54,090 nt of DNA from Candidatus Moraniibacteriota bacterium (lineage in GTDB: Bacteria > Patescibacteriota > Minisyncoccia > Moranbacterales > UBA11712), in NCBI GenBank assembly GCA_028716005.1, contig JAQUQQ010000002.1:1-54090 (forward strand), in the 5' to 3' direction. Under the pieces are notes generated by a model. The model ran no database searches. It was given only the letters and a program-made list of their open reading frames with translations, and was not told the DNA's origin. Of this stretch, positions 38,449-42,313 are shown piece after piece (positions within the stretch are counted from its first letter, which is position 1; each line of letters opens with the position of its first letter). The position numbers were made by a program, and so were the translations under genes.

Positions 38449-39393
38449 TCAAAGTCGAGCATCTTCTCTGTACGAAGCTTGATATCTTTTTTTAAACTCT
38501 GTAAGCGAAAAATGATGTTCCTGCGTCCCATATTTCTCAATCGCGTAGCTCGCCGCGACGCTCCCGAGCCGTCCACACATTCGAAGATTATATCCCTTAT
38601 CCAATCCGACCAAAAATCCCGCCCGATACGCGTCTCCCGCCCCGGTCGGGTCTTCGATTTTTTTTGGCCGGCAGGCTTCAACCAAAATTTCCTGCCTGTC
38701 GCGGGTTTCAATTCGCGAACCTCTCTCGCTATACGTCGTCACGAGCGTTTCCGCGCGCTTCAAAATTTCTTTTTTATCCCAGCCTGCTCTTTTCTGAATC
38801 ATTTTTATTTCATAATCATTGCCGACAAGAACGTTCGCCTGGTTTATGGCTTTTCTCAATTCGCTGTCCGTGAATGCCGGAATCTGCTGCCCGGGATCAA
38901 AAATTGTTTTGACGCCAAGACCGGCGCATTGCGACAAGTGTTTCAGCATCACGCTTATTTTGGTCGGGGAAATGATTGCCCAGCGGGGCTTTTCTTCTTT
39001 TTTTCTGAATTTTATCTCCGGCGCGGAGCCGAGAGCGCCGTTATAGAACGCGGTGATCTGGTTGTCGTCGAGATCGGTTGTGATATAGCACGAAGCGGTA
39101 AACAGTTTTTTATCTGTTTCAATTCGATCACCGCTTATTTTGATATGGCTTAGATATTTCAAATACTCTCCGCCGTCTTGTCCGACTGACGAAACAATAA
39201 TCGGACTGCCGCTCAGCAATTTTATATTATACGCGATATTCCCCGCCGTCCCGCCTTTGCTTTTTTCCAATTTGTCGACAGTAAAACAGACATTCAAAAT
39301 ATGGATACTGTCCGGAAGAATATGATTTTTGAACCGGTCCGGAAAGTCCATGATATGGTCATAGACCAAGGAACCGGATACGAGAATTGGCAT
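38449..39393 (-). CDS. PfkB-family carbohydrate/nucleoside kinase (adenosine kinase candidate)
   Basis: ORF 38449-39498 trimmed to the ATG at 39393 (MPILVSGSLVYD), because the extension reads through the tRNA. GGTAGNIAYN, DPTGAGDAYRAGF. Confidence 0.8.
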   Translation of the reverse strand: MPILVSGSLVYDHIMDFPDRFKNHILPDSIHILNVCFTVDKLEKSKGGTAGNIAYNIKLLSGSPIIVSSVGQDGGEYLKYLSHIKISGDRIETDKKLFTASCYITTDLDDNQITAFYNGALGSAPEIKFRKKEEKPRWAIISPTKISVMLKHLSQCAGLGVKTIFDPGQQIPAFTDSELRKAINQANVLVGNDYEIKMIQKRAGWDKKEILKRAETLVTTYSERGSRIETRDRQEILVEACRPKKIEDPTGAGDAYRAGFLVGLDKGYNLRMCGRLGSVAASYAIEKYGTQEHHFSLTEFKKRYQASYREDARL

Positions 39394-39408
39394 ATTGTTA
39401 TTTTTAGT

Positions 39409-39496
39409 TGGCGGAAGGGGAGGGATTCGAACCCTCGATACCTTGCGGTATACCCGCTTTCCAAGCGAGCGCACTCGGCCTCTATGCGACCCTTCC
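39409..39496 (-). tRNA. tRNA-Ser (anticodon GGA), CCA encoded
   Basis: Hand-folded 88 nt. Acceptor GGAAGGG/CCCTTCC, D stem GCA/TGC, anticodon stem CTCGC/GCGGG with loop TTGGAAA, long variable arm TATACCGCAAGGTATC, T arm GAGGG-TTCGAAT-CCCTC, then GCCA. Confidence 0.88.
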
Positions 39497-39789
39497 ATTA
39501 TTTTTTATCAACTGCTCAAACGCATTGCCGCCCTTATACGATTTTATCTTTTTCTCCCTCCTCATCGCTTCCTTTTTATCTGAAAATTTTTCTGTATGCA
39601 CAAGCCTAAACGGACGCCGTTTTCTTGTCGATATATTTCTGCCTTCATTATGAAACTTCAAACGCATTTCGACATTACCTGTGTACCCTATATAATAACG
39701 ACCGTCTTTCTTGCTTTGAATTATATAAACATAGTACATAACTTTCCAACCCCGCCGTGGCGGGGACTCGGCCTCTATGCGACCCTTCC
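39473..39789 (-). mobile_element. GIY-YIG cassette bounded by an exact 24-nt duplication of the tRNA-Ser 5' end
   Basis: actcggcctctatgcgacccttcc occurs at 39473-39496 and 39766-39789. GC hairpin ccccgcc/ggcgggg at 39750-39765. Confidence 0.5.
39482..39739 (-). CDS. GIY-YIG nuclease-family small protein
   Basis: 85 aa. MYYVYIIQSKKDGRYYIGYTGNVEMRLKFHNEG...REKKIKS; its last 15 nt, including the TAG, overlap tRNA positions 1-15. Confidence 0.8.
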   Translation of the reverse strand: MYYVYIIQSKKDGRYYIGYTGNVEMRLKFHNEGRNISTRKRRPFRLVHTEKFSDKKEAMRREKKIKSYKGGNAFEQLIKNNGRVA

Positions 39790-39820
39790 TTGCTCATTTA
39801 GAATAACCCACAAATAAAGC

Positions 39821-39846
39821 AAAATCAAGCCGAAAAGCTTGATTTT
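39821..39846 (-). terminator. Hairpin terminator after ppsA
   Basis: aaaatcaagc-6 nt-gcttgatttt; T-rich tail on the minus strand. Confidence 0.7.
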
Positions 39847-39871
39847 TACAACTCAAAAGTATTTTTCATTG

Positions 39872-42313
39872 CTACCTCTCCATCTTCTCAATCGCAATCA
39901 TTGTCTTGATGACCGTATCCGGGTTGAGGGATATAGAATCAATTTTTTCCTTCACTAAAAATTGAGCAAAATCAACAAAATCCGACGGCGCCTGGCCGCA
40001 AATTCCGACTTTGCGGCGGGCTTTGTGGGCTTTTTCTATAACTTGGCGGATGAGTTCTTTCACGGCTTCATTGCGCTCGTCATAGACATGCGCCACTTTG
40101 GCGCTGTCCCGATCCACTCCAAGAGTGAGTTGCGTGAGATCGTTCGAACCGATGGAAAATCCGTCAAAAATTTTTGAAAATTCCGCGGCGAGAATCACGT
40201 TCGAAGGAATTTCACACATAACGTTAACCTGAAGACCTCCTTCTCCGCGCTTGAGTCCATATTTTTCCATTTCAGCGAGAACTTTTTTTCCTTCCTCGAC
40301 CGTCCGGCAAAATGGAATCATGGCTTTCATGTTCGTGAGTCCCATCACATCGCGCACTTTCTTGAAAGCCAGGCACTCGAGGCGAAATCCTTCTTTATAA
40401 TCTTCGTCATAGTATCTCGACGCCCCCCGCCAGCCAATCATTGGGTTTTCTTCAGCCGGTTCGAAACTCTTTCCGCCAATCAAGGTCGCGTATTCATTCG
40501 TTTTGAAGTCCGACATCCGAACAATCACGTCTTTCGGCCAAAAAGCGGCGCAAATCCGCCCGATTCCCTCGGCCAATTTCTCCACAAAAAAATCTTCTTT
40601 GTTTTTATAGCCCTGCGTGAGTTCGTTGATTTTCTTTTTTTCCTCTTTTTCTTTCACTTTCTCGAAATGGATGAGAGCCATCGGGTGGATTTTGATATAT
40701 TCCGTGATGATGAATTCTTCTCGGGCGAGGCCAACACCATCGTTTGGTATAAAACTCAAGTCAAAAGACTGATCGGGATTGCCGACATTCATCATAATCT
40801 TCGTCTTCGATTTTTTGATATTTTTGAGGTTGGTTGTTTTTATCTCAAATTTGAGAAGGCCGTCATAGACATGCCCCTCTTCCCCCTCGGCGCAGCAGAC
40901 TGTCACCGGCTTTGTGTCTTTCACGGCGCTGGTCGCGTTTCCGGCTCCGACAATGCAGGGAATTCCAAGCTCGCGCGAAACAATCGCCGCGTGGGATGTC
41001 CGACCGCCGGAATTCGTGACAATGGCCGAAGCAATTTTCATGATTGGCTCCCAGTCCGGATCAGTCATTTCCGTCACCAGGACTTCGCCTTTTTTGAAAT
41101 CCGCGATTTTAGCCACGTCTTTGATCACATTGGCTTTCCCTTGACCGATTTTTCCTCCCACTGCCGCGCCAGTGCACAAAATTTTGCTTTTTGATTTCAA
41201 AATATATTCTTCAAGGACATTCTTTTCTTTTTGCGACTGCACGGTTTCGGGACGGGCCTGGACGATATAGAGTTTTCCGTCTCGGCCGTCTTTGGCCCAT
41301 TCGATGTCCATCGGCTTTTTGTAGTGCTCCTCAATGATGAGCCCCCACTTGGCCAGTTCCAGCGCTTCTTCATCCGTGAGACAGAATTTTTTTTGGTCTT
41401 CCTGCGAAACCGCCACGTTTTGAGTTGAAGCCCCGCCCCCGACGGAATAAACCAGTTTCGTTTCCTTGCTCCCCAGCTTTTTCCCGACAATTGATTTGAA
41501 TCCCTTTCGAAGAGTCGGCTTGTGAACGATGAATTCATCCGGATTAACCTTGCCCTTCACGATATTTTCTCCAAGACCCCAGGAGCCGTTCAGGATAATC
41601 GCGTCCGAAAATCCCGATTCAGTGTCGATCGTGAACATCACCCCGCTTGAAGCCTCGTCGGAGCGCACCATTTTTTGCACTCCTACCGAAAGAGCGATTT
41701 TGAGATGGTCGAAACCCTTATCCACGCGATAGGATATGGCCCGATCGGTGAAAAGTGAAGCAAAACATTTCTTGATCGACTCAAGAATTTGATATTCTCC
41801 GGTGATGTTGAGATAAGATTCCTGCTGACCGGCGAAAGACGCGTCCGCAAGATCCTCGGCGGTCGCGCTGGATCGCACCGCGACGTCCACTCCGCCGGCG
41901 AAATGATTGGTATGATCTTTTTTGTCCCAGCTTATTTTGAAACTGCGGTGCGGATTATATTCACGGGAAAGTTTCGAGTATGATTCAACGATTGAATTTC
42001 GAAGGTCGAAAGGAAATTCCGCCGAAAGAATAGCCTGGCGCACTTTGTATCCTCGTTCGGCGAGATTTCGCATATTTCCCGTATCAAGGCCCTTCAGAAT
42101 TTTTTTGATTTCCGCGTCCAGATTATTCTGGCGCAAAAAATAGCGGTAAGCTTCGGAGGTTATGGAAAAACCATCAGGAATTCTGATTCCATACTTGCGA
42201 AGATTCCGATGCATTTCCCCAAGCGAGGCGTTTTTCCCGCCGACAAGTTCGATATCTTTTATTCCGGTTTCACGAAACCAGAGAATGTATTTTGTTTTTG
42301 TATTGTATATCAT
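39872..42313 (-). CDS. ppsA: Phosphoenolpyruvate synthase (pyruvate, water dikinase)
   Basis: 813 aa. ATP-grasp N-terminus, swivel His GGRTSHAAIVSRELGIPCIVG, C-terminal PEP-utilising TIM barrel. Confidence 0.93.
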   Translation of the reverse strand: MIYNTKTKYILWFRETGIKDIELVGGKNASLGEMHRNLRKYGIRIPDGFSITSEAYRYFLRQNNLDAEIKKILKGLDTGNMRNLAERGYKVRQAILSAEFPFDLRNSIVESYSKLSREYNPHRSFKISWDKKDHTNHFAGGVDVAVRSSATAEDLADASFAGQQESYLNITGEYQILESIKKCFASLFTDRAISYRVDKGFDHLKIALSVGVQKMVRSDEASSGVMFTIDTESGFSDAIILNGSWGLGENIVKGKVNPDEFIVHKPTLRKGFKSIVGKKLGSKETKLVYSVGGGASTQNVAVSQEDQKKFCLTDEEALELAKWGLIIEEHYKKPMDIEWAKDGRDGKLYIVQARPETVQSQKEKNVLEEYILKSKSKILCTGAAVGGKIGQGKANVIKDVAKIADFKKGEVLVTEMTDPDWEPIMKIASAIVTNSGGRTSHAAIVSRELGIPCIVGAGNATSAVKDTKPVTVCCAEGEEGHVYDGLLKFEIKTTNLKNIKKSKTKIMMNVGNPDQSFDLSFIPNDGVGLAREEFIITEYIKIHPMALIHFEKVKEKEEKKKINELTQGYKNKEDFFVEKLAEGIGRICAAFWPKDVIVRMSDFKTNEYATLIGGKSFEPAEENPMIGWRGASRYYDEDYKEGFRLECLAFKKVRDVMGLTNMKAMIPFCRTVEEGKKVLAEMEKYGLKRGEGGLQVNVMCEIPSNVILAAEFSKIFDGFSIGSNDLTQLTLGVDRDSAKVAHVYDERNEAVKELIRQVIEKAHKARRKVGICGQAPSDFVDFAQFLVKEKIDSISLNPDTVIKTMIAIEKMER

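Follow-up and report, generated by a model that had tools for sequence, protein, structure and literature searches.

SegB, encoded by the bacteriophages T4 and T6, is a free-standing GIY-YIG homing endonuclease whose gene lies in a tRNA gene cluster (PMC2330249; PMC13096335). Its recognition sequence is the T-arm motif GGTTCRANTCC, which leads to cleavage within many tRNA genes, and the enzyme ensures the preferential inheritance of itself and of the neighbouring tRNA genes (PMC2330249). In addition, SegB drives the recombination-dependent tandem amplification of units composed of tRNA-Tyr and segB (PMC13096335). Here, a much smaller GIY-YIG nuclease gene, overlapping the 5′ end of tRNA-Ser(GGA), is described from a Candidatus Moraniibacteriota bacterium (contig JAQUQQ010000002.1, positions 1 to 54,090; this whole stretch of 54,090 nucleotides (nt) is referred to below as the window). 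With moderate confidence, the locus is interpreted as one copy of a widespread family of selfish, nuclease-driven cassettes of ~0.4 kb that disrupt a tRNA gene and supply a replacement for it. The parts of the cassette are an Slx1/UPF0213-type GIY-YIG nuclease of ~80 amino acids (aa), at least one palindrome of the form CCCCGCC-N-GGCGGGG, and tRNA sequence of the target identity. As a kind, tRNA-linked selfish GIY-YIG nuclease genes are known; the present element is apparently undescribed, and is distinguished by 1) a minimal Slx1-type enzyme, 2) a conserved palindrome, 3) a split resident tRNA, and 4) a cassette-borne replacement.

SegB is the closest experimentally studied analogue, and shares with the cassette a GIY-YIG catalytic domain and a gene located among or next to tRNA genes. 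The amplification of tRNA and nuclease units by SegB resembles the 347–358-bp arrays found here in Bacteroidota, and several of the pseudo-tRNA copies described below break at the T-loop (nt 60–66), a further likeness. However, SegB belongs to the I-TevI/Seg branch and has an extra DNA-binding region, whereas the proteins described here are 80–85 aa long, consist of a single domain of the Slx1/UPF0213 branch, and have no match in PHROGs; the window protein, with 85 aa and one domain, lacks the sequence features of Seg-type homing endonucleases. SegB is phage-borne, whereas the present genes are chromosomal in Patescibacteria, Bacteroidota and other phyla and are nearly absent from viral contigs. 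Neither a conserved palindrome, nor a palindrome-substituted pseudo-tRNA, nor a split resident tRNA accompanied by a replacement is described in the SegB papers (PMC2330249; PMC13096335). A preliminary description of this DNA, made from the sequence alone, had called the arrangement unusual; this holds relative to integrase islands, but the arrangement is widespread and has in phage SegB a studied analogue (PMC2330249; PMC13096335).

The best sequence and fold matches are UPF0213 (COG2827, YhbQ-type) and Slx1 proteins, with which the minimal single-domain architecture is shared. Slx1 requires Slx4 and acts on branched DNA. The minimal Slx1-like architecture was noted by Dunin-Horkawicz et al. 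2006, and the UPF0213/Slx1-like family has been described as uncharacterised or repair-related, with no link to tRNA genes or palindromes in that paper (PMC1564403). Integrase islands and prophages likewise insert in a tRNA gene, carry tRNA sequence, leave a working tRNA and have a partial tRNA repeat at the boundary. These elements rely on tyrosine integrases, extend over kilobases and duplicate the tRNA 3′ part, whereas the 0.4-kb unit described here contains no integrase, has a repeat beginning at tRNA nt 1, and can carry a complete tRNA. An integrase-type island was thus rejected for the window, in which no recombinase gene lies between the repeats and the repeated sequence is tRNA nt 1–24, not the 3′ end. 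Group I introns in tRNA anticodon loops also reside within the body of a tRNA gene, and the element of locus L089 (see below) sits in an anticodon loop; unlike in the case of these introns, Rfam detected no ribozyme, and a second copy of the gene, not splicing, restores function. Repetitive extragenic palindromes (REPs) and their REP-associated tyrosine transposases (RAYTs) similarly pair a GC-rich palindrome, short and conserved, with a small, dedicated nuclease gene. Copies of REPs are scattered over the whole genome, and the RAYT enzymes are Y1 (IS200/IS605-like) transposases; the palindrome described here occurs only in the cassette or its remnants (a single one in the 54 kb of the window), and the enzyme is GIY-YIG. 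No description of the combination of ORF (open reading frame), palindrome and tRNA was found in the literature searched, the coverage of which was incomplete, and its novelty is therefore provisional.

The only tRNA that ARAGORN calls in the window is tRNA-Ser(GGA), which is matched by the Rfam tRNA model with 51.7 bits (E = 3e-10). Its nt 1–24 (GGAAGGGTCGCATAGAGGCCGAGT) occur exactly twice in the 54 kb, at 39473–39496 and 39766–39789, both on the minus strand, and had no match in 100 shuffles; the repeat does not extend further on either side. The upstream copy, which contains the 5′ acceptor strand and the D-arm through the first nucleotide of the 3′ D-stem, is followed by the GC palindrome CCCCGCCACGGCGGGG and then by the 8 nt TTGGAAAG, identical to tRNA nt 33–40. 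Since tRNA sequence resumes past the palindrome, the upstream copy is longer than 24 nt and is interrupted by the palindrome, not ended by it. The upstream piece is thus a palindrome-disrupted pseudo-tRNA (nt 1–24, palindrome, nt 33–40) that retains the putative tRNA promoter. The palindrome is 10 nt from the ATG of the nuclease ORF, and TTGGAAAG, which ends 2 nt before the ATG, is probably the ribosome-binding site of this ORF; at this position TTGGAAAG, TTGGGAAG or TTGGAAG is kept in loci L001, L007, L083 and L084. The GIY-YIG gene is the only ORF between the two repeats, and its last 15 nt (five codons with the TAG) are tRNA nt 1–15, the TAG being tRNA nt 13–15. The exact duplication, the hairpin at precisely these positions, the 85-aa GIY-YIG ORF between the copies and its overlap with the tRNA had all been proposed in the preliminary description, and were borne out by the repeat search, the palindrome, the Pfam match and the coordinates, respectively (Table 1).

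Table 1. Positions of the window features and of the loci compared with them (identities are to the proteins of the window).
Feature	Position	Strand	Remarks
Intact tRNA-Ser(GGA)	39409..39496	-	Working copy; perfect 7-bp acceptor stem, encoded CCA
GIY-YIG ORF	39482..39739	-	85 aa
TTGGAAAG	39742..39749	-	8 nt after palindrome; anticodon loop of remnant
GC palindrome CCCCGCCACGGCGGGG	39750..39765	.	CCCCGCC-AC-GGCGGGG; in place of tRNA nt 25–32 in remnant
Left tRNA remnant	39766..39789	-	Exact copy of tRNA-Ser(GGA) nt 1–24
Putative sigma-70-type tRNA promoter	39800..39828	-	-35 TTGATT 39823–39828, 17-nt spacer, -10 TATTCT 39800–39805
Terminator-like hairpin of upstream ppsA-like gene	39821..39846	-	11-bp stem and T-run
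ppsA-like phosphoenolpyruvate synthase gene	39872..42313	-	813 aa; upstream neighbour
PfkB-family kinase gene	38449..39393	-	314 aa; begins 15 nt past tRNA
Empty allele L082			ppsA, then tRNA-Ser (1 nt different); no ORF, remnant or palindrome; PpsA 90%, PfkB 76%
Empty alleles L091, L092			Found via tRNA 5′ half
Filled alleles L083, L084			Same ppsA synteny; PpsA 88% (L084; L083 too short to compare)
Filled allele L007/L079			ppsA ~1.6 kb upstream of ORF; PpsA 90.5%
Possible ORF-less scar L081	L081:2798-3010		Closest relative; tRNA-Ser truncated at nt 65, then divergent intact tRNA-Ser(GGA); PpsA 93%
Split native tRNA-Ser with insert	L089:3633-4152
Recombinant allele	L088:5138-5539		Other metagenome sample
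Tandem array	L057:2912-6089		9.2 copies of 347 bp, 99% identity
Tandem array	L008:2902-5486		7.2 copies of 358 bp, 99% identity
Mini-unit arrays	L049:2439-2900; L060:2622-2900; L014:2616-2880; L046:2365-2530		Upstream of intact tRNA-Pro
Second palindrome class	L002:3244-3330; L086:2750-2830		Also in downstream pseudo-tRNAs of L014, L049

Lack of support for the two junctions had been named in the preliminary description as an argument against the proposed insertion. Instead, Logan contigs of two landfill metagenome runs were found to span 39463–39920 (X1) and 39451–39860 (X2), and hence both junctions, with zero mismatches; this support comes from independently assembled contigs, not from raw reads. 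The junctions are therefore not an artefact of a single assembly. A right-hand tRNA remnant is absent from the window because pfkB begins directly past the tRNA, and the copy in the window is unremarkable within its class, rather old and one-sided.

The nuclease itself was assigned to the Pfam GIY-YIG family (PF01541) with 67.5 bits against a curated cut-off of 22.6 (E = 1.3e-18). Both signature motifs, GIY and YIG, are present, as are the conserved Arg and Glu, and none of Y5, Y16, G18, R26, H30 and E62 varies among 37 homologues. A profile search of the PDB ranked the UPF0213 proteins BH0048 and EF2693 first and SLX1 next (E = 6.3e-16 for 1zg2, 1.8e-12 for 1ywl and 1e-6 for SLX1). The AlphaFold2 model (pLDDT 90) shows strands at residues 2–9, 15–20 and 44–52 and helices at 23–32, 55–67 and 72–80, that is, the beta-beta-alpha-beta-alpha-alpha GIY-YIG fold; Foldseek matched it to BH0048 and Slx1 with TMq of 0.63–0.68 and more weakly to I-TevI (0.51). 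The protein thus belongs to the minimal stand-alone Slx1-like/UPF0213 branch, with a single domain and no auxiliary domain. Its tail of five tRNA-overlap residues has a pLDDT of 49, as would be expected if this tRNA-encoded tail were incidental read-through, and several homologues end in G-[REG]-V-A, the translated 5′ end of tRNA-Ser. The close homologues number 67 and are about 80–90 aa long (mostly 79–90 aa), and the profile retrieves 8,613 clusters at E ≤ 1e-10 from a 50%-identity library. A ratio of non-synonymous to synonymous substitution rates (dN/dS) of ~0.12–0.2, with saturated dS, between the window and its syntenic orthologues indicates that the ORF is under purifying selection. No match to the nuclease was found in the PHROGs, PADLOC and NCBIfam libraries, phage records contained only distant relatives (≤46% identity), and 2.9 M viral contigs, from which the ORF family is almost absent, yielded only one distant match. 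A phage or defence origin was dropped on the basis of these phage-record, PHROGs, PADLOC and viral-contig results.

Comparable loci were collected from one-genome-per-species GTDB genomes in a search based on 12 closer sequences, which gave 78 loci. A same-strand tRNA touches the ORF in 73 of these. Eleven anticodons are represented: Ser GGA and GCT, Tyr GTA, Gly TCC and GCC, Lys CTT, Gln TTG, and Glu TTC in Patescibacteria and relatives, and Pro TGG, CGG and GGG in Bacteroidota. Since tRNA types are interspersed on the protein tree, the tRNA partner was switched several times. Two layouts are distinguished. The Patescibacteria-type layout, mapped in 21 loci including the window and a few in other phyla, contains a palindrome-bearing pseudo-tRNA from nt 1, the ORF and the intact tRNA, which is Ser(GGA), Tyr(GTA), Gly(TCC), Lys(CTT), Gln(TTG) or Glu(TTC); the ORF stop often lies within tRNA nt 8–15. 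A left-type remnant was found in 20 Patescibacteria-type loci and always starts at tRNA nt 1. The pseudo-copies of relatives reach nt 36, 51, 60 or 66; they are collinear with the adjoining tRNA, and the palindrome interrupts them or substitutes part of them. The Bacteroidota layout contains an intact tRNA-Pro (all three anticodons), the ORF and a full-length pseudo-tRNA-Pro in which D-arm nt 11–25 are replaced by the palindrome; the acceptor, anticodon and T arms are kept, and ARAGORN still calls a tRNA. Candidate culturable carriers of the cassette are Terrimonas ferruginea DSM 30193 (L022), Flavisolibacter ginsengisoli DSM 18119 (L070) and Draconibacterium halophilum (P0009). Right-hand remnants reaching the last tRNA nucleotide occur in L013, L036, L043, L058 and L067.

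The cassette is also found amplified. The unit of the two tandem arrays (L057, L008; Table 1) consists of tRNA-Pro nt 27–77, a terminator-like hairpin, the GIY-YIG ORF, tRNA nt 1–10 and the palindrome, and the native D-arm is present only in the first tRNA of each array. The arrays come from long-read metagenome-assembled genomes, at least L008 being Nanopore-based, judging from the record title. Three called proteins of 166–214 aa (P0188, P0189, P0192) contain two GIY-YIG stretches each, and are probably read-through fusions of adjoining array units.

These data bear on the simplest alternative, according to which the window holds a decaying tandem duplication of tRNA-Ser with an unrelated small ORF between the copies, or an assembly artefact. 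It is true that the upstream piece derives from a second copy of the tRNA, and that tRNA regions break short-read assemblies, unitig breaks having been seen here too. However, the ORF family, the palindrome and the partial tRNA copy recur together at the 11 anticodons, in several phyla and in 70+ independent genomes, which also answers the concern, raised in the preliminary description, of a degraded tRNA gene unrelated to the ORF. An artefact is further contradicted by the exact reproduction of both junctions in two runs and by the presence of arrays in long-read assemblies, and decay by a remnant 24/24 identical to its own tRNA despite saturated synonymous sites in the orthologous ORFs. Recurrence together with the independent contigs excludes coincidental tRNA decay or misassembly, and the probability left to this account is negligible.

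Besides the ORF and the tRNA sequence, the palindrome belongs to the cassette. In the window, the only match to CCCGC-N3-8-GCGGG in 54 kb is the CCCCGCCACGGCGGGG site. Across the family, the palindrome, whose consensus lies within the extra, disabled tRNA copy, was found within 150 nt of the ORF in 74–76 of 79 loci when counted as CCCCGC/TCCCGC/CCACCGC...GCGGG[GA]. By this count, 142 motifs lie within 150 nt of ORFs (2.54/kb) against 37 in 364 kb of flanks (0.10/kb), a ~25-fold enrichment. About 31 of the 37 flank palindromes belong to tandem mini-units of tRNA remnants upstream of tRNA-Pro in L049, L060, L014 and L046. These mini-units are 55–68 bp long, occur in 3–7 copies, contain no ORF, and consist of 5′ flank, tRNA-Pro nt 1–10, palindrome and nt 27 to ~40; they look like repeated left-junction remnants. 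In some disabled tRNA copies the palindrome stands in place of the D-arm, the anticodon arm or the T-loop; in others it is an insertion in the anticodon or the D-loop. The C-rich arm comes first in 150 of 155 hairpins, so that sequence is conserved, not pairing alone; the window, L083 and L084 have identical stems and differ in the two loop bases. In some Bacteroidota pseudo-tRNA-Pro, a second palindrome class, TCCCGCC-N-GGCGGGA, replaces the T-loop in addition to the D-arm palindrome (Table 1), and its outermost pair is changed from C-G to T-A, a compensatory change. A CRISPR reading of the hairpin was rejected: the CRISPR repeat model matching 39742–39778 on the minus strand reached 16.7 bits (E = 0.76) against a gathering threshold of 39, and reflects the GC hairpin only.

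By analogy with REP/RAYT systems, the palindromes might instead be the ends of a transposon, with the GIY-YIG protein acting as a structure- or dyad-specific 'transposase' that would cleave these ends and the ORF and tRNA moving by cut-and-paste or copy-out rather than by homing from a homologous allele. This would fit the palindromes found exactly at remnant/insert junctions in many loci, the identical palindrome pairs that bound both sides of the L089 insert, the conservation of the palindrome sequence across phyla while the tRNA context changes, and the switches between unrelated tRNAs, which are hard to explain by homology-dependent homing. Slx1-type nucleases, to which the fold is matched, are established to cleave branched and stem-loop DNA. 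However, palindromes are also found at several places within remnants, and in mini-repeats that lack an ORF. In many loci, among them the window, only one side has a palindrome. No GIY-YIG transposase is known, and excised or circular forms of the cassette were not seen among the Logan contigs. Such a transposon is thus considered improbable.

On the replacement of a disrupted tRNA by the cassette, L089 is the most informative locus. There, a native tRNA-Ser (acceptor GGAGAGG/CCTCTCC) is cut after nt 36. A pair of palindromes follows, then the ORF, a complete tRNA-Ser and a partial tRNA; the same palindrome pair then recurs ahead of native nt 37–86 with CCTCTCC and the native flank. The complete tRNA-Ser of the cassette has a different and self-consistent acceptor stem (GGAAGGG/CCCTTCC) and CCA. 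The insert thus comes with a working tRNA of its own, and an identical pair of palindromes lies at each end. L088, a second structural allele of this locus, is 100% identical to L089 over the aligned stretch but lacks 118 nt; the 5′ part of the cassette tRNA is fused to the native 3′ end, giving a chimeric tRNA-Ser with the acceptor mismatches A4.C69 and G5.U68. L088 is a recombination product. Both loci carry a donor-type tRNA 5′ part, and they show directly that cassette-supplied tRNA sequence restores a working gene. The initial proposal of integration in the D-arm with regeneration of the 5′ part of the tRNA can be followed in part: the cassette is tied to the tRNA, empty sites exist, and L089/L088 have a restored gene. 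However, nt 24/25 is the position of the palindrome and not necessarily the integration point, since the pseudo-copy resumes beyond it, and the only complete element, that of L089, brings a whole tRNA and splits the native one in the anticodon loop.

A check for empty sites had been suggested in the preliminary description, and cassette-free tRNA-Ser sites were found in the relatives L082, L091 and L092. L082 shows the same ppsA...pfkB synteny as the window, and ppsA is the upstream neighbour common to the filled L084 and P0002 and the empty L082. The closest relative, L081, has no nuclease ORF and may carry the scar of a lost cassette; its divergent intact tRNA lies between the arms of a 15-nt inverted repeat (ccccgcaccaaaatt / aattttggtgcgggg). 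The remnant matches the tRNA of its own genome at 24/24 positions in the window and L083 and at 22/24 in L084, and co-varies with that tRNA between genomes. Such a match despite saturated synonymous sites is not expected of a neutral relic; the remnant is either formed anew in repeated rounds of repair or homing, held to the tRNA sequence through gene conversion, or under selection.

Alternatively, a GIY-YIG gene with a palindrome-bearing pseudo-tRNA could be a domesticated, vertically inherited and host-beneficial unit that is no longer mobile, possibly serving as a nuclease for tRNA-locus maintenance or copy number (by analogy with Slx1 at rDNA) or as a source of tRNA-like decoy RNA. The order ppsA, GIY-YIG gene, tRNA-Ser recurs in several related genomes, where the ORF is under strong purifying selection and the promoter, palindrome stems and ribosome-binding site are conserved across the syntenic orthologues; the nearest solved relatives are Slx1 and UPF0213 proteins of a housekeeping type, and the pseudo-tRNA-Pro of Bacteroidota retain three arms and are still callable by ARAGORN. 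The distribution is patchy, however, with empty sites in relatives of similar divergence, and the eleven tRNA targets are interspersed on the protein tree. The cassette-borne tRNA of L089 differs from the native tRNA that it splits. In addition, the nuclease is only 58–69% identical in the genome pairs in which PpsA is 88–93% and PfkB 76–82% identical, and GIY-YIG genes have been predicted to be among those transferred out of Patescibacteria (PMC12455944). Domestication is therefore regarded as unlikely, if less so than a palindrome-ended transposon.

In the favoured reading, that of a selfish cassette, insertion would leave the resident tRNA gene broken and palindrome-marked, and the cassette would provide, or recombine into, the sole working copy. 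In the window, the original tRNA-Ser(GGA) would survive as nt 1–24, palindrome and nt 33–40 behind its promoter, a stub that may now be the nuclease 5′ leader with its probable ribosome-binding site. By analogy with SegB, the small nuclease is predicted to make breaks in tRNA-gene DNA or at the palindrome, and recombinational repair from a filled allele would copy the cassette in (homing). Such repair may also lead to local duplications, tandem arrays and repeat homogenisation, with unequal repair giving rise to remnants, mini-unit arrays and arrays of ORF and pseudo-tRNA. The palindromes may break homology between the remnant and the working tRNA and so stabilise the cassette, precise loss of which would be costly because recombination between palindrome-disrupted remnants would rebuild a dead tRNA. 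Stabilisation explains the position of the palindrome but not its sequence conservation, which suggests recognition by a protein. Finally, from standard biology, processing of the transcript by RNase P at tRNA nt 1 would remove the stop codon of the mRNA, and may keep nuclease levels low.

A bolder form of this proposal is put forward only tentatively. It posits a new minimal class of mobile element, in which the conserved CCCCGCC/GGCGGGG palindromes would serve the ~80-aa Slx1-like nuclease as the ends that it recognises or cleaves. The element would split a resident, often single-copy and essential tRNA into palindrome-marked halves that cannot recombine to a working gene, supply the only functional copy, hop between tRNA species and amplify into arrays. 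More speculative still is a variant in which the palindrome and the flanking tRNA-derived RNA would help to direct the nuclease to tRNA genes.

Several observations weigh against a selfish homing cassette. Among the Logan contigs, the population of the window showed no filled/empty polymorphism and no cassette-free allele of the strain. The cassette regenerates an intact tRNA, so that the filled allele would not be immune if the tRNA itself were the target; immunity through sequence change was rejected, as the empty-site tRNA of L082 differs by only 1 nt. A sequence difference between cassette and native tRNA is known only in L088/L089. The arrangement of ppsA, GIY-YIG gene and tRNA is common to a clade with saturated dS, and the insertion is therefore old and could be domesticated. 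Site-specific homing by an 85-aa catalytic domain with no obvious DNA-binding module would need dimerisation, a partner or structure recognition. With regard to expression, all 16 listed runs holding the sequence are labelled DNA, the type being guessed.

If the favoured interpretation is correct, part of a large uncharacterised family (8,613 clusters), annotated only as 'GIY-YIG nuclease family protein', would gain a function and a lifestyle. tRNA-targeted homing and nuclease-driven amplification would then extend, with a much smaller enzyme, from T-even phages to the chromosomes of Patescibacteria, Bacteroidota and other phyla. To our knowledge, a retention strategy of breaking the resident tRNA and bringing its replacement has not been laid out for nuclease cassettes. 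A sequence-specific nuclease of 80 aa with a 16-nt palindrome would also be attractive for biochemistry. On the practical side, pseudo-tRNAs called as genes by tRNA finders inflate tRNA counts, and cassette repeats break assemblies.

Further features of the window concern its transcription. The original tRNA promoter probably now drives the pseudo-tRNA, the nuclease ORF and the tRNA as one transcript, which is plausible given the conserved -35/-10 pair and the short distance from palindrome to ATG. In three syntenic orthologues both hexamers are kept, in spite of the saturated synonymous sites of the ORF; the TTGATT/TATTCT pair is below the threshold of a consensus promoter scan. The scan calls TTGGAA-18-TATAAT at 39720–39749 on the minus strand, with the -35 in the anticodon-loop remnant and the -10 in the ORF start. 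A transcript from this site would lack the start codon, and the site was taken as probable chance in AT-rich sequence. Folding of the leader RNA was not clearly better than that of shuffles (z = -1.95), and no special structure beyond the palindrome is argued. In an Rfam scan of 39300–39900 (E ≤ 1), the tRNA, one below-threshold match and two chance-level matches were found, with no intron model; the below-threshold match, Plastid-psbl-rps4, lies on the opposite strand of the tRNA (34.3 bits against a gathering threshold of 68, E = 1.9e-05). Intron and riboswitch readings were rejected on this basis. The 3′ arm of the terminator-like hairpin of the ppsA-like gene overlaps the putative -35, and the hairpin is conserved in the syntenic L083 and L084. 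The gene order in the window is ppsA, cassette, tRNA-Ser, pfkB and AdoHcyase.

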